Notes: generated by a model not told the origin, from the letters alone. A DNA stretch of 64,000 bases from a candidate division WOR_3 bacterium SM23_42 (GCA_001303785.1 LJUJ01000009.1:43569-107568); one strand, 5' to 3'; positions 3,278 to 55,822 are shown, counted from the first letter of the stretch. Translations and numbers: made by a program.

Positions 3278-3295
3278 TGAGAGTAAGGGGGTATT

Positions 3296-4559: not shown

Positions 4560-4580
4560 TTCAGTAGGAAGGAGGTAACA

Positions 4581-9670: not shown

Positions 9671-10853
9671 GAAGAACATAGTGGCCGAGATTAACCCTGA
9701 AATCAGGGAGGCCCTTGTAGAAATGGGGGCAGTCGATGCATACAAGTGTTATCAGTGTGGTAAATGTGCCAGCGTATGCCCATGGTTTCAGGTTGGAACG
9801 TATGAATTCCTCGTCTTCAGATTTCCTCTGGAAACAGTACTCGGCTTGATCGCGAGCAGCGAAGATAAAGAAGAACTGGCAAAGGAGGTCGACAAGATAT
9901 ACCGTTGTGTCGGATGCGAAGCATGTGTCGATCAGTGCCCATTGGGTGTGAAGATACCCGACATCCTGAGATCAGCAAGAAGAATATTAGTTGATTTCGG
10001 ATCCTATCCTGAGACGCTCAAGTCCGTAGTGCAGAAGATTCGCAACGTGGGGAATCCCTTGGGCGAACCGCGTGAAACCCGTGGTGATTGGGCAAAAGAG
10101 CTGAACGTCGAGACCTACTCTGCAGATAAGGAATTATTGTACTTCCCATGCTGTATACCATCATATGATGACCGCATAAGCCGTGTCGCTAAAGCTACTT
10201 CGCTCATACTGAAACATGGCGGGGTATCCTTTGGTATTCTTGGAACGAGAGAGAGTTGTTGTGGTGAGGCAATACGAAGAGCTGGTGCCGAGACAGTGTT
10301 TAATGAAACTGCGAAGGCTAATATACAAGCATTCACGGAAGTTGGCGTCAAGCAGATACTCGTGAGCTCTCCGCACTGCTATGTTACATTCAGTAAAGAG
10401 TATCCCGAGCTTGGTGGCAGCTTCGAACCACTACACACTACGCAATATTTTTGGCAGCTCATTGAGAACGGTAAGATCCGACCAAACAAAAGTTATGAGA
10501 AGAAGGTTGTCTATCATGATCCATGTACTTTAGGACGCCAGAGCGGGGTCTACGAAGAACCGAGGAATATTCTGAAAAGCATTCCCGGGTTGGAATTACT
10601 GGAGGTTGATGATTTCTCGCGTAACCTGAGTCTTTGTTGTGGCGCGGGGAGTGGTGCGCTCTGGATCGATTGGCCAAAAGGCGAACGCATGGCGGACATA
10701 CGAATTAAACAATTAGTCGACACAGGTGCGGAAGTCATTGCGGTTGCGTGTCCTTACTGTCTGCAAATGTTCGAGGAAACTGTGAAGGCAATGAATATCG
10801 ATATTACAGTAATGGATGTTTGCGAAATACTACACGAGTCATTGAGTGGGTAG
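9660..10853 (+). CDS. HdrD-like (Fe-S)-binding protein: 2x[4Fe-4S] ferredoxin domain plus two CCG cysteine-rich domains
   Basis: 397 aa. TTG start is 6 nt after GGAGG and overlaps the previous gene by 11 nt. Motifs CYQCGKCASVCP, CVGCEACVDQCP, two CCG motifs (ESCCGEAIRRAG, LSLCCGAGSG) and ACPYC. No obvious TM segment. Confidence 0.75.
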   Translation: MANKKNIVAEINPEIREALVEMGAVDAYKCYQCGKCASVCPWFQVGTYEFLVFRFPLETVLGLIASSEDKEELAKEVDKIYRCVGCEACVDQCPLGVKIPDILRSARRILVDFGSYPETLKSVVQKIRNVGNPLGEPRETRGDWAKELNVETYSADKELLYFPCCIPSYDDRISRVAKATSLILKHGGVSFGILGTRESCCGEAIRRAGAETVFNETAKANIQAFTEVGVKQILVSSPHCYVTFSKEYPELGGSFEPLHTTQYFWQLIENGKIRPNKSYEKKVVYHDPCTLGRQSGVYEEPRNILKSIPGLELLEVDDFSRNLSLCCGAGSGALWIDWPKGERMADIRIKQLVDTGAEVIAVACPYCLQMFEETVKAMNIDITVMDVCEILHESLSG

Positions 10854-12681: not shown

Positions 12682-12962
12682 AGAAAGTAACCAAGAATGA
12701 TGAAGCGTACCTCAGAGCAAAGAAACGCGTCGCCGAATTGAAGGGTTTTTATGCACACCTAATTGTTTTCGTCATCGTAAACATGATTTTGGTGATTATC
12801 AATCTCGTCCTCACCCCACGATTCTTGTGGTTTCTAATTCCCCTCCTGGGGTGGGGTGTAGGTTTGTTTTTCCACGCCGTCTTTGGGTTTGGACTGTTCG
12901 GAGTGTTCACGAAGGAATGGGAAGAGCGGAAGATAAAGCAGTACATGGGCGGGGAAAGCTAA
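12678..12962 (+). CDS. 2TM-domain small membrane protein
   Basis: 94 aa with two hydrophobic helices after KKRVAELKGFYAHL. ATGA overlap with the previous gene. Confidence 0.55.
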   Translation: MKKVTKNDEAYLRAKKRVAELKGFYAHLIVFVIVNMILVIINLVLTPRFLWFLIPLLGWGVGLFFHAVFGFGLFGVFTKEWEERKIKQYMGGES

Positions 12963-13016
12963 TTTCCCGATATCTAGACACGCAACTGTAAGGAAAAGAG
13001 CAAAGGGGGTCTTTTT

Positions 13017-13865
13017 ATGTCTAATAATATGCAGGACATCAAGCATGAGAAAATAGAAGACATGCTGGTGGCGTACATTGCAGCGCGCGGTACGTTTGAA
13101 GACTCGCCCCCGAAATGGATGTCGAGATTCAATGTATTGAGGGAATCCTGTGAGGGCCTTATCTGTGGCTCAGCCATGGCATTGTACGATTACGGAGTGT
13201 ACACGAAAGGTGTACATGTAGACTTGTGTTATCCGGTCACAGAACGCGTGGAGTCGGATGATATTAAGAGCAAAATTATCGAAGGAGTCGAAGTCCTGTC
13301 GCTCACTCACTATGGTCTGTACGAAAAGATGGGCGAGACCTACAAAAAGCTCTACAGTTTCATGAGAGAGCATGAGGTGGTGCCGACTGCTTATGGCCGA
13401 GAGGTGTATCTGGAATACCATGCCGATGAGCCGGAAAGGAATGCTACCGAATTGCAGGCAGTGCTGCACAAATGGGAAACTCGGTTCGCACGACACGTAG
13501 AGCGCGTGCTCGGCTTGAAGGCGAGGGAAGCGGTAATGAAGGACAGCGATTTGTTGTACACCATCGAATCGACTGCTCACGATAAGGCAAAGTGGCTGAA
13601 GGCGGCGATGGAGACGTTGGATGGTTTGACCGATGAAGAACAGAAATTCGAAATACTTTCTTGCTGTGCTCACGAATTTTCTGATAGGCGTACTGCAAAG
13701 CTGCGTGCTGTTTATAAAGAAGCAGGAAATATCGAAGCAGTCATTAAGTTTATGCATGAAGACCCTGATTGGTATGACTGGAAGAGGGCATATCGCCGAC
13801 GTTCTGCTACTGCGGAACTGGTTGGTACCGACAGTACTGGGAAGGTGTACTGGGTGAACCAGTGA
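13017..13865 (+). CDS. GyrI-like effector-binding domain fused to a cysteine-rich domain paralogous to 13979..14665; the 3' end appears frameshifted (true tail continues in another frame to 13933)
   Basis: The N-terminal ~150 aa look GyrI-like (VAYIAARGTFED...LSLTHYGLYEKMGETYKKLYSFM...REVYLEY). The C-terminal part aligns with the next gene (EILSCCAHEF vs EIMTRCACEYP). The conserved tail ISPTFCYCGTGWY...VKIEVLKSLLKGDDHCELAIHLP is encoded at 13787-13933 in the -1 frame. Confidence 0.6.
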   Translation: MSNNMQDIKHEKIEDMLVAYIAARGTFEDSPPKWMSRFNVLRESCEGLICGSAMALYDYGVYTKGVHVDLCYPVTERVESDDIKSKIIEGVEVLSLTHYGLYEKMGETYKKLYSFMREHEVVPTAYGREVYLEYHADEPERNATELQAVLHKWETRFARHVERVLGLKAREAVMKDSDLLYTIESTAHDKAKWLKAAMETLDGLTDEEQKFEILSCCAHEFSDRRTAKLRAVYKEAGNIEAVIKFMHEDPDWYDWKRAYRRRSATAELVGTDSTGKVYWVNQ

Positions 13866-14677: not shown

Positions 14678-16381
14678 ATGACATCGGGTGATAGACCAGG
14701 GCCACGTAACTTCATTGAAGAAATAGTCGAAGAGGACATCCGCACCGGCAAATATGGCGGACGGGTGCACACTCGTTTTCCCCCTGAACCGAACGGCTAT
14801 CTGCACATCGGTCATGCCAAGGCGATTTGCATCAGTTATGGTATTGCCGACAAATACAATGGCTTGTACAACTTGAGATTCGACGACACAAACCCGACGC
14901 GGGAAGAACAGCAGTACATTGATGCAATAAAAGAAGATATTCGCTGGCTGGGTTTTGACTGGGAAGACCGAGAGTATTATGCATCTGACTATTATGAGCA
15001 GCTTTATGAATGGGGTCTGCAGTTGATTAGGAAAGGCAAGGCGTACGTCGATGATTTGACTGCCGAGCAAATCAGGGAACATCGAGGAACCCTGACCACT
15101 CCGGGTAAGGAGAGTCCTTTCCGTAACCGCTCGGTCGAGGAAAACCTCGGTCTATTTGAAAGGATGCGCAAAGGTGATTTCCCAGATGGTAGCCGGGTAT
15201 TGCGTGCCAAAATCGACATGGCGGCAGCGAACATGAATATGCGGGACCCCGTGATGTACCGGATATTGCATGCCACACACCCTCGCACCGGTGACAAGTG
15301 GTGCATATACCCTACTTATGATTGGGCTCATGGCCAGTCAGATTCAATTGAGGGAATCACCCACTCGCTTTGTTCATTGGAATTCGAAAACCATCGACCT
15401 CTGTACGATTGGTTCTTGGAAGAATTAGAAGTGCATCACCCTCAACAGATTGAATTCGCACGTCTTAACCTCAACTATACAATCACAAGCACGCGCAAGT
15501 TGCGTACACTCGTAGAAGAAGAATTCGTCAGCGGCTGGGATGATCCGCGCATGCCGACGCTCTCAGCTATGCGCAGGCGGGGTTATACACCAGAGGCAAT
15601 ACGCAGGTTTTGTGACAACGTTGGTGTAGCAAAGGCCGACAACGTTATCGATATCGCAAAACTCGAGCATTACTTGCGTGAGGATTTGAACAAAACAGCG
15701 CCACGCGTCATGGCCGTTTTACGTCCTCTGAAGTTAGTCATTGATAATTATCCCGAAGATAAGATTGAAGAATTAGATGCAGTCAACAATCCTGAAGATC
15801 CGAGCATGGGGATGCGCAAGGTTCCTTTTTCACGATTATTGTATATCGAACAGGACGATTTTCGGGAAGAACCGCCGCCGAAGTATTACCGTCTCGCCCC
15901 AGGTCGCGAAGTGAGATTACGCTACGCTTATTTCGTGAAATGCGTTGATGTAGTGAAGGACAAAGACGGTAAGGTCATTGAAGTCCATTGCACATACGAT
16001 CCCGAGACCCGCGGTGGTGATGCACCGGACGGCCGTAAGGTAAAGGCGACTCTGCATTGGGTATCATCAGCTCAAGCGATCCGTGCCGAAGTCAGGTTGT
16101 ATGACCGTCTCTTCACGAGGTCAGATCCCAACGAAGTCGAGGGTGAAGGCAAGGACTTCAGGGCAAACTTGAATGCTAATTCACTCGAAACCTTGACCGA
16201 TTGCAGACTCGAGCCGAGCTTGAGTAGCGTCAAGGCTAGTGATCGCTATCAATTTGAGCGTCTCGGCTATTTCTGTGTTGACCCTGATTCGCGGGTGGAC
16301 AAACTGATATTCAATCGAACCGTATCGTTACGTGATACATGGGCGAAGATCGAAGAAGCACAAGAGAAGGGTAAGGGATAA
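14678..16381 (+). CDS. glnS: Glutamine--tRNA ligase
   Basis: 567 aa. Class I HIGH region [19 protein letters not shown] followed by NLRFDDTNP. Overall GlnRS layout including the C-terminal anticodon-binding beta-barrels. Confidence 0.92.
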
Positions 16382-32580: not shown

Positions 32581-32670
32581 TGGATAGAATACTAAAATGA
32601 TTTGTTTTATGTTTGGAACTTGTGATTTATTGGTGATGCGGTATTTGAGATTTGTAGTTTTGGAGGTTTG

Positions 32671-41909: not shown

Positions 41910-41914
41910 TCTAT

Positions 41915-41973
41915 GGGTTGAGGTTGAGATGCTGGATATACTTATATTTAATCCAGCTTCATAACCCCAACCC
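41915..41973 (+). other. Long imperfect hairpin after the lyase gene (possible terminator or second repeat type)
   Basis: GGGTTGAGGTTGAGATGCTGGAT (41915-41937) pairs with ATCCAGCTTCATAACCCCAACCC (41951-41973), with 3 mismatches, 1 G-U wobble and a 13-nt loop. No U-tract follows. Confidence 0.4.
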
Positions 41974-42000
41974 AATACTTGTCTTTCGGAAGGAGGTTTG

Positions 42001-43064: not shown

Positions 43065-43550
43065 ATGGAAAAGATACAGAAAACACTGAACGAAAGGGAT
43101 ACTGAACGCACTGAAGCGGAAAATGGCGAAGTGGGATTACAGGAAATAGAGAGAGCGAGAGAATTGTACAGCAAAAAATACGATGAATACCCTTACTCGG
43201 ATGTCACGCAGAAAATAATCGGATGCGCAATACATGTCCACAAGAATCTAGGTCCAGGTTTCAAAGAGTCTGCGTACGAGAACGCACTTTTAGTTGAGTT
43301 AGATAGACGAGAAATACCCTATGAGCGTCAAAAACCAGTGGCGATCAACTACAAGGGCAAAGAGGTTGGAACATATAGGATAGATCTGGTGGTCGCCGAA
43401 AAGATAATAGTTGAACTGAAGGCTGTTAAGAGTATCAATATTGAAGATCGCAGGAATCTTTCGAAATATTTGAAAGCAACTAACACGAGAGTGGGTTTGC
43501 TATTGGATTTCTCTAAGCCTACAATAGAGATAAAGCGACCAGTCTTATAA
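43065..43550 (+). CDS. GxxExxY-family protein (PD-(D/E)XK-like fold) with N-terminal low-complexity extension
   Basis: 161 aa. Core IIGCAIHVHKNLGPGFKESAYENALLVELDRREIPYERQ...RIDLVVAEKIIVELKAV contains the GxxExxY motif. The N-terminus is encoded by CACTGAA heptamer repeats. Confidence 0.75.
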   Translation: MEKIQKTLNERDTERTEAENGEVGLQEIERARELYSKKYDEYPYSDVTQKIIGCAIHVHKNLGPGFKESAYENALLVELDRREIPYERQKPVAINYKGKEVGTYRIDLVVAEKIIVELKAVKSINIEDRRNLSKYLKATNTRVGLLLDFSKPTIEIKRPVL

Positions 43551-44738: not shown

Positions 44739-44759
44739 TGATTCAAACAGATATGCACA

Positions 44760-44809
44760 GATGCAGACGGATAGCAATCGTTTTGCATCAGCCTCAATCC
44801 GTTTGCATC
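44760..44809 (+). other. 13-bp stem hairpin in the thiolase-DUF35 spacer
   Basis: GATGCAGACGGAT (44760-44772) pairs with ATCCGTTTGCATC (44797-44809): 12 Watson-Crick pairs plus one G-U. It is followed by GGTTTTC. Confidence 0.4.
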
Positions 44810-44836
44810 GGTTTTCACGAAAGAAAGGAGTGAAAA

Positions 44837-45226
44837 ATGCCATCACCAAGATACCATAGAGAGATACCACAGAGATATCGACTCGAAGCCGCAAAGTGTA
44901 AGGAATGTGGTCGGATGTCGTTTCCTCCTCGGAGGGTTTGTAGTAACTGTGGAGCACGGGAATTTGAGATGACAAAATTGTCAGACCATGGGAAAATATT
45001 GACCTATACCACAATACGAGTAGCACCCAAGGATTTTGAGAATCAGGTACCTTACAATGTGGCAATTGTTGAGTCAGAAAATGGTGTAAGGGTGACGACC
45101 CAAGTTGTTGATTGCAAACCAGAGGACCTGGAGATTGGTAAGAGGGTTAAATTCGTTTTCCGCAAGTTGTATTCCGAAGGTCACACAGGAATAATCTGTT
45201 ATGGATATAAGGCAGTACTTATCTAA
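44837..45226 (+). CDS. DUF35 Zn-ribbon/OB-fold protein (thiolase/HMGCS scaffold type)
   Basis: 129 aa with Zn-ribbon CKECGRMSFPPRRVCSNCG followed by an OB-fold segment. It lies directly after the thiolase. Confidence 0.85.
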   Translation: MPSPRYHREIPQRYRLEAAKCKECGRMSFPPRRVCSNCGAREFEMTKLSDHGKILTYTTIRVAPKDFENQVPYNVAIVESENGVRVTTQVVDCKPEDLEIGKRVKFVFRKLYSEGHTGIICYGYKAVLI

Positions 45227-45340
45227 GCACGAAATCCTAAACAATATCAAATGACAAAAATCATAAATCCGAAACTTGTAAATCATTGTGGTTTTGAAAT
45301 TCGGATTTGTTTCGGATTTCGATATTAGGATTTCGGATTT
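45221..45340 (+). repeat. Intergenic palindromic element, copy C
   Basis: ATCTAAGCACGAAATCCTAAACAATATCAAATGAC...GGTTTTGAAATTCGGATTTGTTTCGGATTTCGATATTAGGATTTCGGATTT. The DUF35 stop codon is the TAA of the conserved CTAAGCAC box. Confidence 0.8.
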
Positions 45341-45349
45341 GAGAGGCTT

Positions 45350-46957
45350 ATGTACAAAATAGAATCAAAGATAAAAACAAATAGCCGCGAGTTTAGGGAA
45401 AACAAGGCAGTGATGGAAAAGGCCGTAAGCACTCTGAAGGACCGTTTGAAGCAGGTGAGGAAAGGCGGCCCTGAGTATATGCATAAGAAACATGCAGAGC
45501 GAGGTAAGTTGTTCGTCCGTGAGAGACTGGAGCGACTCTTTGACCCTGATACACCATTCATGGAGCTAAATCAATTGGCTGCTTGGGACATGTATGATAA
45601 TGGTCATCCTGCTGCGGCGATGGTTACGGGCATTGGTCTCGTCCATAACCGTGAGGTAATGGTTGTCGCTCATGATGCTACGGTAAAGGGTGGCACTTAT
45701 ATACCTGAAACGATTAAGAAGCATATTCGAGCTCAAGAGATTGCAATCGAAAACAGGTTACCGTGTATATATTTGGTTGATTCGGGTGGCATTTTCTTAC
45801 CGCTGCAGGTGGGTACTTTCCCTGACAAGTATCACTTCGGCAGAATCTTTTTCAACCAGGCTCGCATGTCTGCAGATAATATACCTCAGATATCTGTAGT
45901 ACTTGGCTTTTGCACGGCTGGCGGTGCCTACCAACCTGCGATGAGCGATGAAGTGGTCATCGTGAAGGGTGCGGGTACCATCTATATAGGTGGACCCCCT
46001 TTGGTTAAGGCCGCGACTGGTGAGGTCGTGACAGAAGAAGATTTGGGTGGCGCGGATGTTCACTGTCGGATTAGCGGCGTGGCGGACCACTATGCAATGA
46101 ATGATGAACATGCCCTGGAGATGACGAGGAATATTGTTGAGAACGTATCGAGGATAAACAAGTACCCACTGGAACGCGTGCAGACCGTGGAACCAGCATA
46201 TGACCCAAGTGAGCTTTATGGTATCATCCCGGCTGATCTTAGAAAACCGTTTGATGTGCGCGAGGTCATCGCCCGTATCGTTGACGGTAGTGAGTTTCAT
46301 GAATTCAAAGCGCTCTATGGTCCCACTCTGGTATGCGGTTTTGCTCGCGTGATGGGTTACCCGGTGGGAATTTTGGCTAACAATGGAGTATTATTCTCTG
46401 AGTCATCGCAAAAGGGTTCCCATTTTGTATCCATGTGCGCGGTACGCAGGATTCCAATTCTCTTCCTGCAGAACATCACTGGGTTCATTGTTGGTAAGCG
46501 GTACGAACACGGGGGAATAGCAAAGGATGGCGCCAAGTTGATTCATGCGGTAGCCAATGCGCAGGTGCCGAAATTTACTATTATCATCGGTAATTCCTAC
46601 GGCGCGGGCAACTATGGTATGTGTGGGCGTGCCTATGATCCGCGTCTGTTATGGATGTGGCCAACGGCGAAGATCTGTGTGATGGGTGGCGAACAGGCCG
46701 CAGGTGTGTTGACCGACATCAAAGTGAGGGCTTTGACCAAACAGGGGAAGAAGCTAACCAAAGACAAGATAGAAGAGATTAGAAAGCCGATACTGGCGAA
46801 GTATGAGTATGAGTCGAGCGCCTATTACTCTACGGCAAGGCTCTGGGACGATGGTATAATAGATCCATCGGACACGAGAGAAATATTGGGTCTCGCCATT
46901 TCCATGTCCTTGAATGCACCGATACCCGAACATAAGTTCGGCGTGTTCAGGATGTAG
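45350..46957 (+). CDS. 3-Methylcrotonyl-CoA carboxylase beta (carboxyltransferase) subunit
   Basis: 535 aa with [62 protein letters not shown]. The length and motifs match the MCC-beta type more than the PCC-beta type. Confidence 0.8.
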
Positions 46958-46965
46958 TCGATCGC

Positions 46966-47094
46966 AAATCCGAAGCACTAAATCCGAAATTCGAAACAAT
47001 ACCTAATGACCGAAATCCAAAATTCTAAACTGTTTTGAAAATTGGGATTTGGAATTTGTTTCGGATTTCGATATTAGGATTTCGTATTTAGAAT
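46966..47094 (+). repeat. Intergenic palindromic element, copy D
   Basis: AAATCCGAAGCACTAAATCCGAAATTCGAAACAATACCTAATGACCGAAATCC...TGTTTTGAAAATTGGGATTTGGAATTTGTTTCGGATTTCGATATTAGGATTTCGTATTTAGAAT. Confidence 0.85.
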
Positions 47095-47106
47095 GAAGGG
47101 GGTTTG

Positions 47107-47436
47107 ATGGCAAAGATAAGCTTGAAAAAACTGGTCAGGGAAATTAAGGAACCGTGGCAGCCAAGGGACATATTACATGTTCATCAAACCGCGCTTAGAA
47201 TAGCCAAACTTGATGGAGCTTATGGTTGGCATGTGCATTTGCACGAGGATGAGTTCTTCTTGGTGTTGAAAGGTAGGATATATATCGATACTGAAGAAGA
47301 CTCGATCGAGCTTAAAGAATACGAAGGATATCTTGTGAAACGCGGGATCAGACATCGTTCGCGAACCAAGAAACCTGCTTGGGTGATGCTCGTTGAGCCG
47401 GTTATAACTAAGACAAAGGGTGAGCGTACTGATTGA
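47107..47436 (+). CDS. Cupin domain protein (paralog of 16384..16710)
   Basis: About 109 aa with WHVHLHEDEFF...GYLVKRGIRHRS. Aligns along its length with the cupin next to glnS. Confidence 0.7.
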   Translation: MAKISLKKLVREIKEPWQPRDILHVHQTALRIAKLDGAYGWHVHLHEDEFFLVLKGRIYIDTEEDSIELKEYEGYLVKRGIRHRSRTKKPAWVMLVEPVITKTKGERTD

Positions 47437-47473
47437 TTAGCGAGTTTACATAAGAGTTAAGGGGGTGTTTCCC

Positions 47474-48265
47474 ATGCGAGAAGCGAAGTATCAAACAATT
47501 GTTTATGAACTTCAAGATGACATCGCACGCGTGACTTTCGATCGCCCTGATGTCCATAATGCCTTTAATGACATAATGATCAGCGAATTGATTGACGTAT
47601 TCGATGAAATAGACAAGCGTTCAGAAGCACGCGTGGTGGTGGTGACTGGTAGGGGTAAGTCTTTTTGTGCCGGCGCCGACCTGAATTGGATGCGTCGAGT
47701 CAAGGATTATTCATATGAAGATAACCTCCGCGAATCACTAGAGCTCTCAGACATGCTCTATAAGATATACGCCTCTTCGAAACCGACGATCGCCCGAGTG
47801 AACGGAGCAGCAATAGGAGGTGGGACCGGACTCGTTGCGGTTTGTGATATTGCAATTGCAGCTGACAGCGCGAAGTTTAGTTTCAGTGAAGTGAAGATCG
47901 GACTCATCCCCGCTTGTATTTCGCCGTATGTCGTCAAGAAGTGTGGCGAGGGACAATGTCGGGAGTTTTTTCTGACCGGTGAAAGGCTGACGGCAGATAA
48001 AGCACAAAGGGCTGGCCTCGTTAACAAAGTAGTGGCGTTAGATGAGCTTGATGATACTGTCGATCAGTTTGTCAATCAGTTAAAATCCAGCGGGCCTGAA
48101 GCAGTCACAAGATGCAAAGAACTGTTGAGAAATGTGCCACACATGTCCTATGATGATGTTAAGAAATATACGGCAGAAGTGATTGCTCAAATACGCATGT
48201 CAGATGAGGGGCAGGAAGGGATGCTCGCGTTTCTTGAAAAACGGAAACCGAAGTGGAACGAATAG
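47474..48265 (+). CDS. Enoyl-CoA hydratase/isomerase family; likely methylglutaconyl-CoA hydratase by context
   Basis: ATG at 47474 follows AAGGGGG. Crotonase motifs VVVVTGRGKSFCAGADL and NGAAIGGG. Located between the MCC beta and MCC biotin carboxylase genes. Confidence 0.75.
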   Translation: MREAKYQTIVYELQDDIARVTFDRPDVHNAFNDIMISELIDVFDEIDKRSEARVVVVTGRGKSFCAGADLNWMRRVKDYSYEDNLRESLELSDMLYKIYASSKPTIARVNGAAIGGGTGLVAVCDIAIAADSAKFSFSEVKIGLIPACISPYVVKKCGEGQCREFFLTGERLTADKAQRAGLVNKVVALDELDDTVDQFVNQLKSSGPEAVTRCKELLRNVPHMSYDDVKKYTAEVIAQIRMSDEGQEGMLAFLEKRKPKWNE

Positions 48266-48303
48266 CATGCGGTATCGCTATGCTCGCAGGAAACGCGCCG
48301 TGA

Positions 48304-48435
48304 AAATCCTAAGCACGAAATCCGAAATACTAAACAATCTCAAATACCAAAATACCAAATTCAAAACAGGTTTTGGAGTTTTGAACATTAGAATTTTGGA
48401 TTTGTTTCGGATTTCGAAATTCGGATTTCGAATTT
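48304..48435 (+). repeat. Intergenic palindromic element, copy E (long-apex subtype)
   Basis: AAATCCTAAGCACGAAATCCGAAATACTAAACAATCTCAAATACCAAAATACCAAATTCAAAACAGGTTTTGGAGTTTTGAACATTAGAATTTTGGATTTGTTTCGGATTTCGAAATTCGGATTTCGAATTT. Confidence 0.85.
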
Positions 48436-48439
48436 AAAA

Positions 48440-49942
48440 ATGATGTTCAAAAAGATTTTAATCGCTAATAGAGGTGAAATAGCCATCCGCATTGCCAGGG
48501 CATGCAGGGAACTTGGCATACGAGCGGTCGGGGTATACTCAACAGTCGACGAGAATGCCCATCATCTTCGATACATGGATGATACCCACTGGATAGGTGA
48601 TTCGCCACCCCAGGCAAGCTATTTGAATATTTCAAACGTTATCGATGTCGCTGGGCGAGCCGGTGCTCAAGCAATTCATCCGGGCTATGGGTTTCTGGCG
48701 GAAAATTCAGATTTTGCTAAGGCATGTGAGGAGAGTGGTCTTGTATTCATAGGTCCTAGTTCGAATGCATTGGCTCTGGTTGGTGACAAAGTAGCATCGC
48801 GCAATACGGTTCAGAAAGTTGGTGTGCCGATAATACCCGGTATGCGAACCGTTGGTAAAGATTCAAGCGGCTTTAAGAAAATGGCCAAGAAAGTCGGATA
48901 CCCGGTCATTGTGAAGGCATCTATGGGTGGTGGTGGTAAGGGCATGCGTATCGTTCGCACCGAAAAGGAATTGGAAGCGAGTATTGCCGCCGGACAAAGG
49001 GAAGCCAAGAGTGCATTCGGGGATGCATCGGTTTACTTGGAGAAATACATAGAAAAACCACGTCACATAGAATTTCAGGTGCTCAGGGATCACCACGGCA
49101 ATGTGGCTCATCTTTTCGAACGCGAATGTTCGATTCAGCGTCGTCATCAGAAGATAATTGAAGAGACTCCTTCCGCGGCGCTCGACGATGAGCTACGCAT
49201 GAATATGGGCGAGGCTGCAAAAAAGGTCATTGAGATTGCCGAGTACACCAATGCCGGTACGGTGGAGTTCCTCCTCGATGAAAACCGTAACTTTTACTTT
49301 CTCGAGGTTAATGCGCGAGTGCAAGTTGAACATCCAATCACCGAGATGGTGACTGGAGTCGACTTAGTTCGACAGCAAATACGTATTGCCGCTGGTGACA
49401 AAATTAATTTGAGTCAAGCAAGTATCAAACAGCGCGGTCATGCAATTGAGGCAAGAATCTACGCCGAGGACCCAGAGAACAACTTCCTGCCATGCCCGGG
49501 TAGGATTCTGTACCTGAATGAACCGAGTGGTCCTGGTATTAGGGTTGATTCTGGTATATATCAGGGTTGGGATGTGCCACCGCATTATGATCCCATTCTA
49601 TCCAAATTGATAGTCTGGGCAGAGAATAGGGATGTTGCGATAGAGCGAATGTCCAATGCACTGAAAGACTACATCGTCTTGGGTATAAAAAACAATCTCG
49701 GCTACTTGAAACGTATTATGGGTACGTCGAAATTCACCAAAGGGGATTATGACACGCATTTCATTGATGAAAACGAAGAGGAGCTGAGTATACCTAAAGA
49801 AAACATCCATGTGGTTCTGGTTGCAGCAGCGTTGCTTGCTGCAGAAAAGAAAGGCGTATCAGTGGAATCGGGTGGCACTCAGGTACGGCGTGACACCACA
49901 CCATGGCAAGAACTTGGGCATTGGGAGATATGCGAAGATTGA
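48440..49942 (+). CDS. Biotin carboxylase subunit (stand-alone), MCC-alpha-like
   Basis: 500 aa, paralog of 34344..35843, with KILIANRGEIAIR, GYGFLAEN, KASMGGGGKGMR, ERECSIQRRHQKIIEE, NARVQVEHPITE. Confidence 0.9.
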   Translation: MMFKKILIANRGEIAIRIARACRELGIRAVGVYSTVDENAHHLRYMDDTHWIGDSPPQASYLNISNVIDVAGRAGAQAIHPGYGFLAENSDFAKACEESGLVFIGPSSNALALVGDKVASRNTVQKVGVPIIPGMRTVGKDSSGFKKMAKKVGYPVIVKASMGGGGKGMRIVRTEKELEASIAAGQREAKSAFGDASVYLEKYIEKPRHIEFQVLRDHHGNVAHLFERECSIQRRHQKIIEETPSAALDDELRMNMGEAAKKVIEIAEYTNAGTVEFLLDENRNFYFLEVNARVQVEHPITEMVTGVDLVRQQIRIAAGDKINLSQASIKQRGHAIEARIYAEDPENNFLPCPGRILYLNEPSGPGIRVDSGIYQGWDVPPHYDPILSKLIVWAENRDVAIERMSNALKDYIVLGIKNNLGYLKRIMGTSKFTKGDYDTHFIDENEEELSIPKENIHVVLVAAALLAAEKKGVSVESGGTQVRRDTTPWQELGHWEICED

Positions 49943-49990
49943 TGCGGTTGTTGTGGATAATTATCATTCGCCTCAGCAGGTAGGCATAAA

Positions 49991-50497
49991 ATGGAAAACC
50001 GTTTGCGACATCTAAACGAAATACACTTGATCAAACTGGCTAAAGAAAAGGACGGGTACAAGGCAATAATCGGTGATGCTGAGTATAAAGTAAGCGATCT
50101 TTTCGTAAAGGAAAACTTGATTTGCTTTAGGATTGACGGTGAGCTGCGTGTGATATATCATGCTCAGGATAGCGGAACAAGATATATGGCACTTGCTGGA
50201 GAACACTATGTAGTCGAAACAGTTAAGGCTCGGGAATCTGGTGCGAAGAGTACTGTCCCGCAAGAGGAAAACAGCGTTACATCACAAATGCCCGGACTGT
50301 TGGTCAAATTACCAGTTGCCGTGGGTGATAAGGTCAAGGCGGGTGAGACACTTGCGATCGTGGAGGCAATGAAGATGCAGAATGAACTGCGCGCACCCCG
50401 CGACGGTACAGTCGAGAAAATCAACTTTCAGGAAGGTGAACAGGTAGATGCTCTGCAAGCCATAGTTGAACTCGCTGACCTACATGAAAAGCAGTGA
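49991..50497 (+). CDS. Biotin carboxyl carrier protein (biotinyl domain)
   Basis: 168 aa with biotinylation motif IVEAMKMQNEL. Paralog of 35845..36336. Confidence 0.85.
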   Translation: MENRLRHLNEIHLIKLAKEKDGYKAIIGDAEYKVSDLFVKENLICFRIDGELRVIYHAQDSGTRYMALAGEHYVVETVKARESGAKSTVPQEENSVTSQMPGLLVKLPVAVGDKVKAGETLAIVEAMKMQNELRAPRDGTVEKINFQEGEQVDALQAIVELADLHEKQ

Positions 50498-50532
50498 ACG
50501 CGGATTCTCTCAGCTCGTCGTCGAAGTCGGTG

Positions 50533-50665
50533 AAACGCGAAGCACTAAATTCGAAATACTAAACAATATCAAATACTAAATCACAAATTTCAAAACAGGT
50601 TTTGGAGGTTCCAACATTAGAATTTTGAGTTTGTTTCGTAATCTCGGTATTCGTATTTAGGATTT
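50533..50665 (+). repeat. Intergenic palindromic element, copy F (long-apex subtype, more diverged)
   Basis: AAACGCGAAGCACTAAATTCGAAATACTAAACAATATCAAATACTAAATCAC...AAAACAGGTTTTGGAGGTTCCAACATTAGAATTTTGAGTTTGTTTCGTAATCTCGGTATTCGTATTTAGGATTT. Confidence 0.8.
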
Positions 50666-50672
50666 GAAAGGT

Positions 50673-51494
50673 ATGCATTTCTTAGCAATCGTGGCATCGG
50701 AGCGACGCAACGGCAATAGCGACCTCCTGGGCCGTCTTGCTATTCGCTATGCTTTGAAGGTTGGCGCGGACTCCGGGGAGATGATATACCTGAAGGACTA
50801 CGACATAAAGCAATGTCGCGGTTGTCTCAACTGCATCAGTAAGCAACAGAAATGCCGGCTTGACGATGACCTGTATGAATTGCTCGACGTCATGAAAGAT
50901 GCGGACAAAATGCTCCTGATTGCGCCGGTCTATGTTCTTACGATACCGGGTAAGTTGAAAATGCTCCTAGACCGTTACCTGGCAATATCAAAGTATCTGA
51001 GCATCCAGGATGCAGGGCATGCGACGAGTATTGGAGTTGCCGCTCTTCCTGAATGGCATCAATTCCAATTGCCGCTTATGAACATTGTTCTTTTATCTCT
51101 TGGTAGGCGTGTCGTTGAGAGTTTTATCGTGTACGGCGCTGGGCCGGGTGAGGTCTTGCTCAATGACAGCGTAGCAAATGTGCAAGCGGCGGTGGACCGA
51201 TTGGTCAGTTATCAGGACGAACGCTATGAGTCGGTCGTGACTAGGAGCTGTCCGATTGACTTCAGTAATATTTTCGAACACGTGAAAGGGAACCAATATC
51301 GTTGCCCGGTCTGTTTGACGCCGGCAAGATTGACAGAGGGCGGATTTTACTTCGATGCTTCTGATCTCAACAGCCACCGTTGGACGCAACAAAAGCTTGC
51401 AGATCATTTCAATAATTGGATTTTGCAAACGAGGCCGCGCTTCAAATCTATGTTGAAGGAAATAGTGAAGAAAAAGAGAGAAATGGGTTTTTGA
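50673..51494 (+). CDS. Flavodoxin-like fold NAD(P)H-dependent FMN reductase / iron-sulfur flavoprotein-like protein
   Basis: ATG at 50673. N-terminus LAIVASERRNGNSDLL...CRGCLNC...LLIAPVY is typical of the family. C-terminal extension has a CPVC motif. Confidence 0.6.
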   Translation: MHFLAIVASERRNGNSDLLGRLAIRYALKVGADSGEMIYLKDYDIKQCRGCLNCISKQQKCRLDDDLYELLDVMKDADKMLLIAPVYVLTIPGKLKMLLDRYLAISKYLSIQDAGHATSIGVAALPEWHQFQLPLMNIVLLSLGRRVVESFIVYGAGPGEVLLNDSVANVQAAVDRLVSYQDERYESVVTRSCPIDFSNIFEHVKGNQYRCPVCLTPARLTEGGFYFDASDLNSHRWTQQKLADHFNNWILQTRPRFKSMLKEIVKKKREMGF

Positions 51495-51509
51495 TAGGGA
51501 GTGTACCGA

Positions 51510-51968
51510 ATGGATAGAATACTACACGAGAAATTGAGGTGCGATATACAGCAGAAGATGAATTCAAATTTGGATACACAGGAGAAACTGAGTGTGGTCT
51601 GTAGATTGGTTAGAGAACATGTACCAAAGTACGACTGGGTTGGGTTTTATATAGTATCTTCGAATAAAGAACTCATCCTTGGCTCTTATGCAGGTGAGCC
51701 AACGGAACACACACATATTCGCTTCGGCCAAGGCATTTGTGGGCAAGCAGCTGAGCAGAAGAAAACATTAGTTGTGCAGGATGTCAAAAAGGAGACAAAT
51801 TATCTCTCTTGTAGCCCCAAAGTACAATCGGAGATAGTCGTGCCGATATTTAGGAACGGCGAAATTATTGGTGAACTAGATATCGACTCTCATCGGCTCG
51901 CGGCATTTGATGAGAGCGACCGCGCATTTCTTGAGGATATTTGCGACGTGGTGTCGCGTCTTTTGTAG
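51510..51968 (+). CDS. GAF-domain protein (free methionine-(R)-sulfoxide reductase-like)
   Basis: ATG at 51510 follows AGGGAG. WVGFYIV...GQGICGQAA...LSCSPKVQSEIVVPI...GELDIDS matches stand-alone GAF/fRMsr-like proteins. Confidence 0.65.
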   Translation: MDRILHEKLRCDIQQKMNSNLDTQEKLSVVCRLVREHVPKYDWVGFYIVSSNKELILGSYAGEPTEHTHIRFGQGICGQAAEQKKTLVVQDVKKETNYLSCSPKVQSEIVVPIFRNGEIIGELDIDSHRLAAFDESDRAFLEDICDVVSRLL

Positions 51969-52137
51969 GAGCGGTAACAGCAAATAGTGGAAACAAGCCA
52001 GGCGAATTTGAATTTTGTGTGTACGCGGGGAAAGATGTGGCAACTCGTTGAAGAACGTGATATGTTTTGCGTGTCTAATTGTGCTTGTCGGGAAGAAAAG
52101 ACTGGTTCTGAATGCAAAATTCATGAAAGGAGGCGAC

Positions 52138-52914
52138 ATGCCTTATGAGTACATACTTGTTGACAAAGCTGATAAAATAGGGTTTGTGAAAATCAATCGC
52201 CCTGATGTGTATAATGCAGTCAGTGTTGAGGCAATGCTAGAGTTGGAAAAGGCCGTGCAGGATTTCAATAATGATCGTGAAGTTTCGGTCGTCGTTATCA
52301 CCGGCGAGGGGAAATCTTTTGTGTCTGGTTCAGATATTTCAAGACTAGTAGAGATGGATTCACTGACAGCCCGTGAATACAGCCAAATCGGACAGAGGGT
52401 TTTAGCGTTCATCGAAAACATGGAGAAGCCAGTAATTGCTGCGGTTAACGGTTTTGCCCTTGGTTCGGGATGCGAGCTGGCAATGGCATGCGATATTAGA
52501 GTTGCTTCCGAGAAAGCAAAGTTCGGGCAGCCTGAGGTGAAACTTGGTCTGATACCGGGACATGCTGGTACCCAAAGGTTAGCCAGGATTGTAGGCATCG
52601 CTAAGGCGAAGGAGCTAATCTTCACCGGCGAGATGATCGATGCCCAGGAAGCCTTGCGTTTGGGATTGGTGAACAAAGTCGTAGCACCCGATGTACTTCT
52701 TGAAGAAGTGAAAAGTATTGCGAGAAAGATAATAGAAGTTGGCCCGACCGCCGTGCGCATTGCGAAGACAGTCATTAATCGCGGGATTGATGCCAATCTA
52801 ACCACGGCAAATTCTTATGAAACAGAAGCTTTCAGTATACTCTTCTCAACTGAGGAGGCTAAGGAAGGAATGACCGCGTTTCTCGAGAAGAGAAAACCAA
52901 ACTGGAACAAATAA
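52138..52914 (+). CDS. Enoyl-CoA hydratase (crotonase)
   Basis: ATG at 52138 follows AAAGGAGG (the ORF-track start 52015 is an upstream extension). VVITGEGKSFVSGSDI, NGFALGSGCELAMACD, FGQPEVKLGLIPG. Confidence 0.88.
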   Translation: MPYEYILVDKADKIGFVKINRPDVYNAVSVEAMLELEKAVQDFNNDREVSVVVITGEGKSFVSGSDISRLVEMDSLTAREYSQIGQRVLAFIENMEKPVIAAVNGFALGSGCELAMACDIRVASEKAKFGQPEVKLGLIPGHAGTQRLARIVGIAKAKELIFTGEMIDAQEALRLGLVNKVVAPDVLLEEVKSIARKIIEVGPTAVRIAKTVINRGIDANLTTANSYETEAFSILFSTEEAKEGMTAFLEKRKPNWNK

Positions 52915-53062
52915 ATCCGAAATACAAATAGTAAGTATCTTACTAGCGTTGGGGTTGGGATGCTGGAACTACTGAGAACGAAGAAATTCATTTTTCTGTT
53001 TTTGTTTGGGACATTAGGATTTGGAATTTGTTTAATATTTCGATATTCGGATTTCGAATTTT
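52913..53062 (+). repeat. Intergenic palindromic element, copy G (left arm disrupted by ~80 nt of unrelated sequence)
   Basis: It starts AAATCCGAAATACAAATA inside the TAA stop. The right arm ACATTAGGATTTGGAATTTGTTTAATATTTCGATATTCGGATTTCGAATTTT is intact. The interior (52931-53010) is unrelated to the other copies. Confidence 0.7.
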
Positions 53063-53081
53063 CCGCTAGGAAGGAGGTTTG

Positions 53082-54419
53082 ATGAACTTGGATGAGAGAC
53101 TCCAGGATGTGACTGTTATAGGTGCTGCAGGGAAGATGGGCAGTGGTATCGGTGTATTGATTGCCCAAGAGATGGCGAAGCTGAAGCTGAAGCCCGAAAA
53201 CAAAGACAAGGTTTATCGATTGAATTTGATTGACGTGAGCGAGCAGGCATTGGATGGCCTGAGGGCGTATATGAAGGCACAGCTCCTCAAGGTAGCAGAG
53301 AAATCAACTGTTCTGCTCCGTAGTCTTTACGAAGATCGGAAGGATCTCGTTGAGAATAGTGAAATAATAAATGCCTTCGTCGATGATTCAACGCGCGTTC
53401 TGAACTTCGGGACGGATCTGGCCATGGCTAAGAACAGCCATCTTGTGTTTGAGGCTATCTTTGAAAATGAGAAAGTGAAAACAAAAATCTACAGGCGACT
53501 GAATAAGATGTGCGGTGCGGATGCATTTTACCTCACGAATACTTCAAGTATCCCGATCGGCCATCTGGATGAAAAGGCCGGTCTTGGTGGTCGGCTCATA
53601 GGCTATCACTTCTATAATCCACCCGTTGTCCAGAAATTGGTGGAAGTCATTACCGCTAAGAACACAATCGATGAGTTGAAAGAGATAGCCAAGGAGCTTG
53701 GTAATCGGTTGCGCAAGACGTTGGTGCCGGCAAGCGATATTTCGGGTTTCATTGGTAACGGCCACTTCATGCGTGACGGACTACACGCAATCAGCGAGGT
53801 TGATCGGCTCAAGAGCAGGTTCCGATATGTAGGTGCGGTTTATGTGATGAATCGAATTTCCCAGGATTTTCTAGCACGGCCGATGGGGATATTCCAGCTC
53901 ATCGACTATGTGGGTATCGATGTATTTCAATGCATATTGAAGGTGATGCGAACTCATCTTGGTGATAAGGCATTGAGGAGCAGATTGATCGACAAGATGG
54001 TTAAGGAAAAAGTGCTGGGTGGTCAATATGCTGATGGTTCACAGAAAGATGGTTTTCTGAAGTACGAGAAGAATCGGCCGGTTGGCATATATGATATCAG
54101 AAAGCACGAATACCAACCCGTTACAGAAGACTGGAAAAAGAGAGTTGACGCGAAAATAGGATCTTTGCCTGAGGGCTTCGTATCCTGGCGGGCCCTACTC
54201 ATGGATAGTAAGAAGGATGAGAAACTGAAAGCGCATTTTACACAACTAAAGGAGATGGATACGCTCGGTGCTGAACTTGCAATGGACTATTTGAAGCAGA
54301 CCGGAGCAATTGCTCAAGACTTGATAAGTCAAGGTGTGGCGAAGACGAAGGATGATGTAAACGCAGTGCTCAAGAACGGATTTTTCTGGCTATATGGACC
54401 GATTAATGACTACCTCTAA
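53082..54419 (+). CDS. 3-Hydroxyacyl-CoA dehydrogenase (long form)
   Basis: ATG at 53082 follows GGAAGGAGG. NAD-binding VTVIGAAGKMGSGIG. The HADH core segment YHFYNPPVVQKLVEV follows. About 445 aa. Confidence 0.8.
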   Translation: MNLDERLQDVTVIGAAGKMGSGIGVLIAQEMAKLKLKPENKDKVYRLNLIDVSEQALDGLRAYMKAQLLKVAEKSTVLLRSLYEDRKDLVENSEIINAFVDDSTRVLNFGTDLAMAKNSHLVFEAIFENEKVKTKIYRRLNKMCGADAFYLTNTSSIPIGHLDEKAGLGGRLIGYHFYNPPVVQKLVEVITAKNTIDELKEIAKELGNRLRKTLVPASDISGFIGNGHFMRDGLHAISEVDRLKSRFRYVGAVYVMNRISQDFLARPMGIFQLIDYVGIDVFQCILKVMRTHLGDKALRSRLIDKMVKEKVLGGQYADGSQKDGFLKYEKNRPVGIYDIRKHEYQPVTEDWKKRVDAKIGSLPEGFVSWRALLMDSKKDEKLKAHFTQLKEMDTLGAELAMDYLKQTGAIAQDLISQGVAKTKDDVNAVLKNGFFWLYGPINDYL

Positions 54420-54422
54420 GGC

Positions 54423-54556
54423 AAAATACGAAGCACTGAATTCGAAATACTAAACAATACTAAATGACCAAAACACAAAATTCAAAACAGGTATTAGAAT
54501 TTAGAACATTTGGATTTTGAATTTGTTTCGGATTTCGATATTCGGACTTAGGATTT
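54423..54556 (+). repeat. Intergenic palindromic element, copy H (long-apex subtype)
   Basis: AAAATACGAAGCACTGAATTCGAAATACTAAACAATACTAAATGACCAAAACACAAAATTCAAAACAGGTATTAGAATTTAGAACATTTGGATTTTGAATTTGTTTCGGATTTCGATATTCGGACTTAGGATTT. Confidence 0.85.
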
Positions 54557-54574
54557 GCTCAGAAAGGAGCTATT

Positions 54575-55822
54575 ATGTCTTTTTTCAGAAAGAAAGTATA
54601 TGCTTGCGCCGGATTCTATACTGTTTCATTGGGGACCGGGAGAAAGGAATTTCATCCTAAGAAACCACGTCCGGGTCTTGAGCATTACATCAAGGATGCC
54701 GGACTCGGGTCGATCGAACAGATAAGAAACCCCGAACATATTGATGAAGGGGTCATTGGGAATTTTGTAGCCGCAAGATTCTGCCATCAAGGCAATCTCG
54801 GCGGTTTCTTCCCCTATATACACGATACTTTCCAATACAAGCCTTGCGTGCGGGTTGAGGGCGCATGTGATTCAGGAGGCTTGGCACTAGTTGCTGCGGT
54901 TAAGACGATTCTTGCTGACCTGGCTGATTCGGTATTGTGCATTGGTGTTGAAGTGCAAAACTCGGTGAAGGCGGTCTATGGTGCAGACTACCTTGCCGCT
55001 GCGGGCTGGTACTCGGGAGAGAGAAAGAAGGGGCATGCTTATTTCTTCCCGGATCAGTTCTCGCAGCGTGCGGGTGCTTGTTTTGACAAATTCGGTTTTG
55101 AGAAATTCCGTCCTGGTATGGCTCAGTGGTATGTTAACGCAATCGAAAACGCTCGTAAGAATCCCAAAGCACAAGAATACCACAACAGGAATTCCGACCT
55201 ACACGCGACTGGAATGACATCGCCAAACCCAAAGGCGTTTTGTGAATATATCAATGTTTTTGATTGTTCAAAGGTATCGGATGGTGGCGCCGCACTTATT
55301 TTTGCTTCCGAAGAAGGCTTGAAAAAAATCGGCGTGGACAAAAAAGATGCCGTCGAAGTTGTTGCATACGCCCAGGTCCAGGATAACCTAACTACACCAC
55401 CACCTGATTTGACTAAGTTGACGACTTGCGAGATTGCCGCAAAGCGAGCATACGAGCGGGCGAATATACAACCGAAAGACCTCTGTGTATTAGACGTTCA
55501 TGACTGCTTCACGGTTGCTGGTTTGTTGGCGGTTGAGGCCGCAGGTTTCGCGGGTTACGGTGAAGGCGCTGATTTCGTGAAGGATGGTAATACAAAGCTT
55601 GATGGAACCATACCCACCAATACGTCGGGCGGTTTAATTGGGTACGGTCATCCAACCGGCGCGACCGGGGTCAGACAGGCAGTAGATGTTGTGCATCAAC
55701 TATCTAGTAGGGCCGGTGACTATCAGGTACGGATCAGCGCTGATAGACCGTATGGTATGATATCAAGCATGGGCGGTAATGACAAGACCGTGGTGGCCAT
55801 GATATTCAGAAAGACTGAATAG
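54575..55822 (+). CDS. Thiolase-domain protein (SCP-x-type acetyl-CoA acyltransferase)
   Basis: 415 aa with nucleophile context VEGACDSGGLA and the C-terminal motifs DVHDCFTVAG and GHPTGATG. Confidence 0.85.
   Translation: MSFFRKKVYACAGFYTVSLGTGRKEFHPKKPRPGLEHYIKDAGLGSIEQIRNPEHIDEGVIGNFVAARFCHQGNLGGFFPYIHDTFQYKPCVRVEGACDSGGLALVAAVKTILADLADSVLCIGVEVQNSVKAVYGADYLAAAGWYSGERKKGHAYFFPDQFSQRAGACFDKFGFEKFRPGMAQWYVNAIENARKNPKAQEYHNRNSDLHATGMTSPNPKAFCEYINVFDCSKVSDGGAALIFASEEGLKKIGVDKKDAVEVVAYAQVQDNLTTPPPDLTKLTTCEIAAKRAYERANIQPKDLCVLDVHDCFTVAGLLAVEAAGFAGYGEGADFVKDGNTKLDGTIPTNTSGGLIGYGHPTGATGVRQAVDVVHQLSSRAGDYQVRISADRPYGMISSMGGNDKTVVAMIFRKTE

Follow-up and report, generated by a model that had tools for sequence, protein, structure and literature searches.

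The question raised by a 64,000-nucleotide (nt) stretch of DNA from the candidate division WOR_3 bacterium SM23_42 (GCA_001303785.1 LJUJ01000009.1:43569-107568; hereafter the window, that is, the whole stretch that was analyzed) is why the intergenic gaps of its leucine/β-oxidation genes contain, one after another, copies of the same AT-rich imperfect palindrome. A preliminary description, made from the sequence alone, recognized eight copies (A–H) and proposed that a family restricted to operons for acyl-CoA oxidation has been co-opted for a post-transcriptional role. We favor a different answer: the window elements are probably non-coding miniatures of a horizontally spreading selfish element that has the design of the intervening sequences (IVSs) of 23S rRNA. 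The narrower claim of identity, that is, that they are miniatures of an IVS-type element that carries a PF05635 gene, we regard as very likely.

Results

One family in two gene strings

The eight copies belong to one family of AT-rich imperfect palindromes, ~105–150 nt long, all located on the + strand in two acyl-CoA gene strings: six in the 9.3 kb from DUF35 to thiolase and two in 1.4 kb of the acyl-CoA dehydrogenase (ACAD)/ETF string. The 17-nt core, TTTGTTTCGGATTTCGA, occurs 11 times in the window with three or fewer mismatches (0.33 expected by chance), and a profile constructed from the window copies gives 70–113 bits on the + strand and 12–50 bits on the − strand. Eight of the 28 window gaps of at least 30 nt are occupied; all eight are gaps between co-directional genes, and each copy ends before the next Shine-Dalgarno (SD) sequence or start codon. 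The family profile finds no further copy in the window even at E ≤ 10, and no additional copy was found in the 17 kb that flank the window on the same 188-kb contig.

A candidate parent form with a PF05635 gene

Genome loci were searched for a parent form, that is, for left and right arms of the family that are located far apart. At four loci from three phyla (Gemmataceae, a deltaproteobacterial metagenome-assembled genome (MAG), a closed Saccharibacteria chromosome, and one more MAG), the arms are 395–525 nt apart and enclose an open reading frame (ORF) of 121–132 amino acids (aa) that matches PF05635 (‘23S rRNA-intervening sequence protein’; E 3e-14 to 6e-11, above the Pfam cut-off) and TIGR02436 (‘four helix bundle protein’; 64–75 bits). 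This form is ~460–620 nt long. The carried proteins are 63–66% identical across phyla, and a profile of the four matches PDB 2rld, a five-chain entry (E 1e-13). The short copies align with the 5′ and 3′ parts of the ORF-carrying form, including the start of the ORF (ATG ACC/ACA AAR..AAT TCA AAA C), and the ends and sub-terminal regions are common to both forms; the ATG of the ORF is retained in window copies B, C, D, and H. Because the A-rich segment of the short copies is the start of the ORF and the ends are shared, the ~130-nt elements are best read, on this alignment, as internal-deletion miniatures of the PF05635-carrying element.

A protein-anchored scan of metagenomes identified at least 565 relatives, of which the best 80 loci were analyzed for arms. 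Both family arms are present in 46 of these 80 and at least one in 64; the other 16 mostly have arms of the same design assembled from sister heptamers (e.g., CCTAAAT, ACAAATT, AACAAAT). Among 300 ORFs that neighbor the 80 PF05635 genes, only leu-operon families recur and no reverse transcriptase does, so the carried ORFs are not the Avd genes of diversity-generating retroelements (DGRs). A scan of ~200 loci for rRNA motifs gave two 12-mer matches, both by chance, and Rfam finds no rRNA at those two loci or in the window; with the family located outside rRNA genes, its identity with the classical IVSs rests on the common protein family and architecture. In up to 10 of the metagenome loci (L150, L157, L171, L180, L186, and others), the ORF-carrying element is located in the leuC/leuD gap of a leuA-leuC-leuD-leuB operon; these occurrences are apparently one insertion inherited within a lineage.

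Anatomy of the element

In the aligned copies, the ends of the family are sharp (5′-AAATYCGAA...TTCGRATTT-3′), and each arm is composed of ~5 degenerate heptamers (CGAAATY on the left, the complement on the right), the number of units per arm differing between copies. The left arm contains 4–7 units (GAAATCC, GAAATTC, GAAGCAC, or GAATATC), and the last unit, GAAACAA, lies just before the ATG. The A-rich segment within the left arm (CAAATGACCAAAAT..AAATTCAAAAC) is followed by a variable apex, often a GC-rich mini-hairpin, and 3′ of the apex by GTTTTGA..TTTGGATTT; two apex subtypes are present among the window copies. The full window copies form long imperfect hairpins with predicted energies of −23 to −37 kcal/mol (z = −2.2 to −5.0). 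The GGA of the heptamer sits inside this predicted stem, and its G position is not fixed: G and A occur there ~50:50 across the family, and ~40–50% of the units have A or T in place of the G. Promoter- and terminator-like signals, including promoter-like hexamers at the ends, are lacking in the copies, so that intrinsic terminators or promoters within them were discarded as candidates; their lack fits a reliance on operon read-through. A copy located upstream of the gene for ribosomal protein L6 (L033, 1077–1257) has a nested GC-rich palindrome, CCCTGCCTGCGCCTGCCTGCGGTAGGCAGGGCAGGCAGG, in its left arm that is not found in the otherwise near-identical copy in L101.

Pairing of the two arms

Across 34 short copies, the two arms pair at 81.4% of 41 mirrored positions, compared with 82.3% after the right arms are shuffled among the copies, and in 492 of 500 shuffles the pairing equals or exceeds that of the real partners. 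Compensatory covariation is not found in these copies (score 0.080, vs 0.084 shuffled); where the heptamers vary, the two arms do so independently, and in columns 5/84 a non-standard pair, mostly C·A, is the most frequent state (17 of 34 copies). In the 44 protein-anchored elements, for which the sense strand is known, sense G·U and sense A·C are equally frequent (93:93); in the window copies alone, the ratio is 13:20, and the sense strand of the window copies folds no better than the antisense strand, with no consistency among copies. (The comparison of sense and antisense folding in the genome set is biased by the search word, so it was repeated on protein-anchored copies.) With neither covariation nor a G·U bias, it is the heptamer motif that is conserved, and the hairpin arises as a by-product where two arrays are inverted relative to each other. 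A selected regulatory RNA thus loses its evolutionary support, and the result points to the heptamer arrays as protein-recognition sites.

Distribution across genomes and contexts

A scan of one genome per species (596 Gb) for the 17-mer returned at least 120 loci, for a sequence with ~70 expected chance occurrences in such a scan. Among the matches listed, 112 of 120 genome loci contain the full ~125-position element (146 copies), and the hosts, by record title, represent more than a dozen phyla: the MAG labels include Planctomycetota, Desulfobacterota, Verrucomicrobiota, Kiritimatiellia, Victivallales, Aminicenantes, Nitrospirota, Omnitrophota, several lineages of Patescibacteria, Chloroflexia, Ignavibacteria, Calditrichota, Binatia, and others. 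The family is also present on the closed chromosomes OY969715.1 and OZ246403.1 and in an Omnitrophota single-cell genome; its occurrence on closed chromosomes and in many phyla shows that it is not a binning artifact. The contexts include ribosomal spc operons (e.g., between the genes for S8 and L6 in L101), leuCD operons, ABC transporters, and kinases. Clustering of the ORFs in the 120 element-bearing loci reveals no recurrent transposase, only ABC ATPases, histidine kinases, and binding proteins.

Plasmids in PLSDB give no match to the family, and GenBank phages give only distant protein matches (39–41%). In IMG/VR, seven of 12 matches are real copies (L210–L214, L216, and L220), five of which span essentially the whole profile; being located on short predicted-viral fragments, which may be phages, prophage edges, or misclassified pieces of host DNA, they are weak evidence for a phage vector. 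Rfam 15 has no match in the window at the gathering threshold, and at E ≤ 1 gives only chance-level matches to miRNA precursors (28.5 and 21.6 bits, vs cut-offs of 82 and 65). Literature searches with sequence strings and keywords found no paper that describes the family.

Orientation and placement

For the ORF-carrying form in the metagenome loci, the ratio of sense to antisense between co-directional genes is 35:1. The upstream neighbor is co-oriented in 57 cases and anti-oriented in eight (p = 3e-10), and the downstream neighbor in 50 and 13, respectively. The distance from the upstream stop codon to the left end has a median of 5 nt and is 10 nt or less in 31 of 49 cases; in 10, the stop codon is overlapped. 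The ORF probably relies for its translation on ribosomes that terminate just upstream. The rules are looser for the short copies, with 39:21 sense to antisense between co-directional genes (27:10 where the strand call is confident), a median distance of 19.5 nt from the stop codon, and occurrences in convergent and divergent gaps as well. From the orientation and stop-abutment rules of the ORF-carrying form, the sense placement of all eight window copies and their closeness to stop codons are inherited traits of the family, with no sign of local co-option. Because 57 of the 59 long window ORFs are on the + strand, the orientations of genes, replication, and elements are inseparable within the window.

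Turnover in WOR-3 relatives

WOR-3 loci with carboxyltransferase homologues that are 84–91% identical, some of them on closed genomes, provide the relatives for comparison. Contigs of the same species have all of the copies in common. In relatives at 84–87% identity, the gap of copy C is empty (12 nt, L127), the genes that flank copy G overlap (an empty site, L128), and the gap of copy H is empty (51 nt, L128). The gap of copy F contains a copy in L129 and, in L127, a gene like those of REP-associated tyrosine transposases (RAYTs; REP, repetitive extragenic palindrome) with a different inverted repeat. Other gaps contain sister hairpins of the same design that are assembled from CCTAAAA, GCCAAAT, AGTAG, or ACGATAC units. 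In the orthologous operon gaps these are located at 9380–9510 and 11609–11787 in L128, at 9861–10000 in L126, and at 9911–10000, 11609–11676, 12004–12131, 12936–13101, and 14608–14723 in L129; PF05635 genes with matching sister arms occur in the relatives’ versions of the operons (L129, 4784–5212; L126, 16915–17325). In the same-species contig L122 (2200–2365, compared with 45150–45352 of the window), the right arm of copy C contains the point at which a different upstream gene, encoding a tetratricopeptide repeat (TPR) protein, meets the carboxyltransferase gene; copy C is thus a rearrangement breakpoint. Empty gaps, sister elements, and the breakpoint are the behavior of mobile, replaceable DNA. 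In several WOR-3 lineages, elements have landed repeatedly in the leucine/β-oxidation operon, a pattern that our model does not fully account for.

The window copies and their neighbors

All eight copies are on the + strand. In the ACAD/ETF string, copy A (3185–3290; 76.9 bits, profile positions 1–107) is located between two ACAD genes (2050–3186 and 3296–4438) and retains the left arm, the region of the start-codon remnant, and the apex, with most of the right arm gone. Copy B (4437–4561; 105.5 bits), between the second ACAD gene and the gene for ETF-beta (4581–5351), is a full short copy in which the ATG of the lost ORF persists (CAAATGACCAAAAT). In the longer string, copy C (45221–45341) follows a DUF35/ChsH2-type gene (44837–45226) and precedes the gene for the carboxyltransferase of methylcrotonyl-CoA carboxylase (45350–46957); its left end is truncated (the first ~12 positions are gone, profile 13–124), and its apex is divergent. 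Copy D (46966–47094; 113.2 bits), between the carboxyltransferase gene and a cupin gene (47104–47436), is a full short copy with the best predicted hairpin (−37.1 kcal/mol, z −5.0). Copies E, F, and H are full short copies of the long-apex subtype: E (48304–48436; 101.9 bits) lies between the genes for an enoyl-CoA hydratase (47465–48265) and biotin carboxylase (48440–49942), F (50533–50666; 89.0 bits) between those for BCCP (49991–50497) and an FMN reductase-like protein (50664–51494), and H (54423–54557; 102.9 bits), which keeps the ATG remnant, between those for a 3-hydroxyacyl-CoA dehydrogenase (53079–54419) and a thiolase (54575–55822). Copy G (52913–53062; 70.3 bits), between the genes for an enoyl-CoA hydratase (52015–52914) and the same 3-hydroxyacyl-CoA dehydrogenase, retains ~13 nt of the left arm and an intact right arm; the sequence between them is unrelated and has a small hairpin of its own. 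In copies A, B, and G, the first A's are part of the upstream TAA stop codon.

The preliminary description had located these eight copies, all on the + strand, at the same coordinates to within a few nucleotides. [quoted passage not shown] Its account of a foldable hairpin applies to the full copies, whereas A, C, and G are truncated or partly replaced; the 3–5 GGA triplets that it noted in the right arm are present in the window but are not a constant of the family. A doubtful stretch at 32581–32667 had rightly been set aside, as it gives no match to the family profile at E ≤ 10; it is T/G-rich (…TTGTGATTTATTGGTGAT…GGTATTTGAGATTTGTAGTTTTGG) and looks like an isolated right arm, lacking its partner, from a sister heptamer family.

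Other elements in the same gene strings

The window also encodes a 161-aa GxxExxY/PD-(D/E)XK protein (43065–43550; TIGR04256, 139 bits; PF13366). The gap that holds this gene is only 8–10 nt in L127, L128, and L129, so the gene is a further small ORF that has entered the operon. Short inverted CACTGAA units flank it (…ACCACTGAACACACTGAA directly before the ATG and, on the other side, …TTTTCAGTGTT…), an arrangement that makes it look like a miniature of the ‘ORF between inverted heptamers’ design. Two strong hairpins (41910–41997 and 44739–44836; −33.3 and −26.5 kcal/mol, respectively) are unrelated to the family and may be further palindromic elements or terminators. About 4 kb to the left of the window start, an intergenic gap contains a perfect ~50-nt tandem duplication, CTTTACGCGAAAAGGTTAAAAATGTTATGCCTGTCCCCAAGCAGCTTC (L223, 4041–4200).

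In L127, the position of copy F is occupied by the RAYT-like gene, which encodes a 332-aa Y1 transposase (14971–16009; NF047646, 64 bits, cut-off 80), followed by a DUF559 gene. A perfect 22-nt inverted repeat, GGGTCAAATCTCGACATTGGAC, flanks the RAYT-like gene and is found again at 18768 and 18892; gene and repeat form a REP/RAYT system of this WOR-3 relative that is distinct from the present family, and we did not retain it as a lead.

Discussion

Whether by insertion or by survival, the parent form is found almost exclusively in sense between genes of one direction, its left end close against the stop codon of the upstream gene. The sense-only rule most likely follows from the lack of a promoter or SD sequence of its own, that is, from a dependence on read-through transcription and on ribosomes terminating upstream. 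Loss of the body of the ORF would leave a ~130-nt hairpin in which the ATG and first codons are still visible. When transcribed in the leucine/β-oxidation polycistron, the arms would pair as a ~40-bp imperfect duplex; with ~80% complementarity over this length, RNase III cleavage is the most likely consequence of transcription. The operon mRNA would then be split at each copy, by analogy with the 23S IVSs, with whatever effect this may have on expression. We consider the case for cleavage at every copy, segmenting the polycistron, to be evenly balanced. The RNase processing site that the preliminary description listed among its candidates is, on this analogy, the most plausible consequence at the RNA level, but neither covariation nor a G·U bias stands behind the RNA helix.

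Several results weigh against a selfish, IVS-type origin of the window elements or against one of its steps. No ORF-carrying copy of the window genome was found within the 81 kb examined, in which all eight copies are located in acyl-CoA gene strings; we can explain this local clustering only by a permissive or highly transcribed operon or by local hopping. None of the ~200 loci has the family inside an rRNA gene. The carried PF05635 protein is no known transposase, and the flanks of 51 full copies have a random composition, with neither target-site duplication nor target consensus; ‘MITE’ thus names the form of these elements, not a mechanism, as no transposase, target-site duplication, or RAYT association was found for the family. 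Gene orientation was assigned with a crude ORF picker (24 of the 28 ‘intragenic’ copies are its read-through artifacts). For the RNA-helix step in particular, the lack of covariation and the 93:93 ratio of G·U to A·C are unfavorable.

The post-transcriptional regulator proposed in the preliminary description, that is, a hairpin selected in acyl-CoA operons as a stabilizer, an insulator, or a CsrA-type GGA platform, would explain why all eight copies in 81 kb are in two acyl-CoA strings, in the sense orientation, and between a stop codon and a ribosome-binding site, and stable hairpins are indeed predicted. However, the restriction to acyl-CoA oxidation is only local, as the same family is found in spc, leuCD, and ABC-transporter contexts in more than a dozen phyla. 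Orthologous gaps in relatives at 84–91% identity are empty or contain other elements. The strict co-orientation that it emphasized describes the ORF-carrying form (35:1) but not the short copies elsewhere (39:21). The real arms pair no better than shuffled ones (81.4% vs 82.3%), no compensatory substitutions accompany the proposed helix, sense G·U does not exceed A·C, and the sense strand of the window copies has no folding advantage; the GGA is unconserved and inside the stem, which leaves the CsrA-type platform without its motif. As a property of the family, the regulator is largely refuted, and we judge it very improbable for the window. We would be similarly surprised if the copies were REPINs or REP-type elements moved in trans, as single-stranded DNA hairpins, by a single-copy Y1 HUH transposase (RAYT/IS200-like), with their orientation following the replication strand. 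The long, sharp-ended imperfect palindromes that lack target-site duplications, the location of the copies and nearly all window genes on one strand, and the RAYT-like gene with flanking inverted repeats in the same operon of L127 are all compatible with that scheme. The repeat on either side of the L127 RAYT-like gene, however, is a different one, 22 nt long, that also occurs by itself; tblastn with its product finds no Y1 homologue in the window or the 120 element-bearing loci; the gene between the family arms is PF05635 at the four genome loci, and the same arms accompany PF05635 genes in 64 of the best 80 metagenome loci; no conserved 4–5-nt target is present beside the left end, as IS200/IS605 elements require; and the copies, AT-rich and ~130 nt long, are unlike REPs. 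Integron attC sites were also rejected, as GTTRRRY/RYYYAAC cores are lacking and the genes between the copies are a syntenic core-metabolic operon kept in relatives.

A selfish element that acts purely at the DNA level is somewhat unlikely in our estimation. Here, the heptamer arrays would be sites for a protein (the carried pentameric four-helix bundle or a host protein), the sense orientation would serve only expression of the ORF, and the RNA hairpin would be inconsequential. The conserved unit is indeed the heptamer and not the base pair, as the arms vary independently and their mismatches are strand-symmetric; the number of heptamers varies between copies, as in Coxiella; and the orientation bias is far stronger in the ORF-carrying than in the short copies. 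This explanation departs from the one that we prefer only in denying a consequence through RNase III or RNA, but ~80% Watson-Crick complementarity over ~40 bp still gives duplex RNA when transcribed, and RNase III does cut IVSs built in this way. A bolder reading, which we think decidedly unlikely, is a distinct mobile class without a transposase, in which a pentameric Avd-like protein would recognize arrays of about five units and a borrowed reverse transcriptase, of the kind that Avd assists in DGRs, would copy back the hairpin RNA that RNase III had excised. Such a route through the transcript would account for sense-only insertion, sharp ends without target duplication, and spread across phyla; if it is true, one class would include as special cases the 23S IVSs and, possibly, the arrays of intergenic heptamers in Xanthomonas and cyanobacteria.

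Returning to the IVS-type miniatures that we prefer, the copies in WOR-3 probably punctuate the transcripts of a catabolic operon. More generally, AT-rich repeats of this kind break short-read assemblies, mark rearrangement breakpoints, and may be mistaken for regulatory RNAs.

Comparison with known systems

The closest relatives in design are the IVSs of 23S rRNA. In the Coxiella IVS, terminal inverted repeats form a stem that is cut by RNase III, the S23p ORF is in the loop, and two to three tandem heptamers, variable in number, precede the ATG of the ORF, which has a poor SD sequence (PMC4990558). IVSs generally are RNase III substrates and are thought to be horizontally transferred. Like the IVSs of Coxiella, Leptospira, and Brucella and those with Xanthomonas-type S23p (PMC4990558), the present family has a long hairpin of terminal inverted repeats whose loop holds a PF05635/TIGR02436 ORF, tandem heptamers in variable number directly upstream of the start of the ORF, a poor or absent SD sequence, and a sporadic distribution attributed to horizontal transfer. 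Unlike them, it occupies intercistronic gaps of protein-coding operons instead of 23S helices 9/25/45 and has longer heptamer-array arms and abundant ORF-less miniatures; its cleavage by RNase III is proposed by analogy. The origin and mobility of the 23S IVSs and the role of the S23p ORF have been open since about 1990 (PMC4990558). The family provides hundreds of recent, dispersed copies of the IVS design in ordinary operons of many uncultured phyla, with and without the ORF, and its clear rules (sense orientation, stop abutment, sharp ends, and no target duplication) make the question of IVS origin and mobility tractable.

The enterobacterial repetitive intergenic consensus (ERIC; also intergenic repeat unit, IRU) elements are dispersed imperfect palindromes of 100–150 nt that are co-transcribed with flanking genes and form RNA hairpins. 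The Correia elements of Neisseria (Correia repeat enclosed elements, CREE; also Neisseria miniature insertion sequences, NEMIS) are likewise dispersed imperfect palindromes of this length, co-transcribed in operons as RNA hairpins, and in both respects the present family is similar; Correia elements are bound or cut by RNase III (PMC2649163). The present family has no sequence similarity to either, no TA target duplication, and no promoter-like hexamers at its ends; it crosses phyla, whereas they are restricted to a genus or family, and its coding parent form is known.

The intergenic arrays of GGGAATC in Xanthomonas and of GGGGAYT in Nostoc/Calothrix (short tandemly repeated repetitive sequences, STRR) have been read as G-quadruplex-forming simple sequence repeats (SSRs) (PMC4692102). 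Their 7-nt units, too, are variable in number and often form convergent (inverted) pairs, lie nearer the end of the upstream ORF, and are found mostly between co-oriented genes (PMC4692102); however, those units are G-rich, and that study draws no link to S23p/PF05635. REP/REPIN–RAYT systems share palindromic intergenic repeats without target duplication, hairpin doublets, and, in a WOR-3 relative, a RAYT-like gene, but no RAYT occurs with the arms described here, which are AT-rich, belong to much longer elements, and enclose PF05635. The carried protein has the same fold and family as DGR Avd, a PF05635 homologue (PMC10053308); in contrast to Avd genes, the ORFs are alone between heptamer arms in housekeeping operons, with neither a reverse transcriptase nor a template/variable-repeat context. 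Thus, the family is an IVS-type, PF05635-carrying hairpin element that colonizes protein-coding operons across phyla and spawns miniatures, outside both the location of the IVSs and the duplication criteria of classical MITEs.

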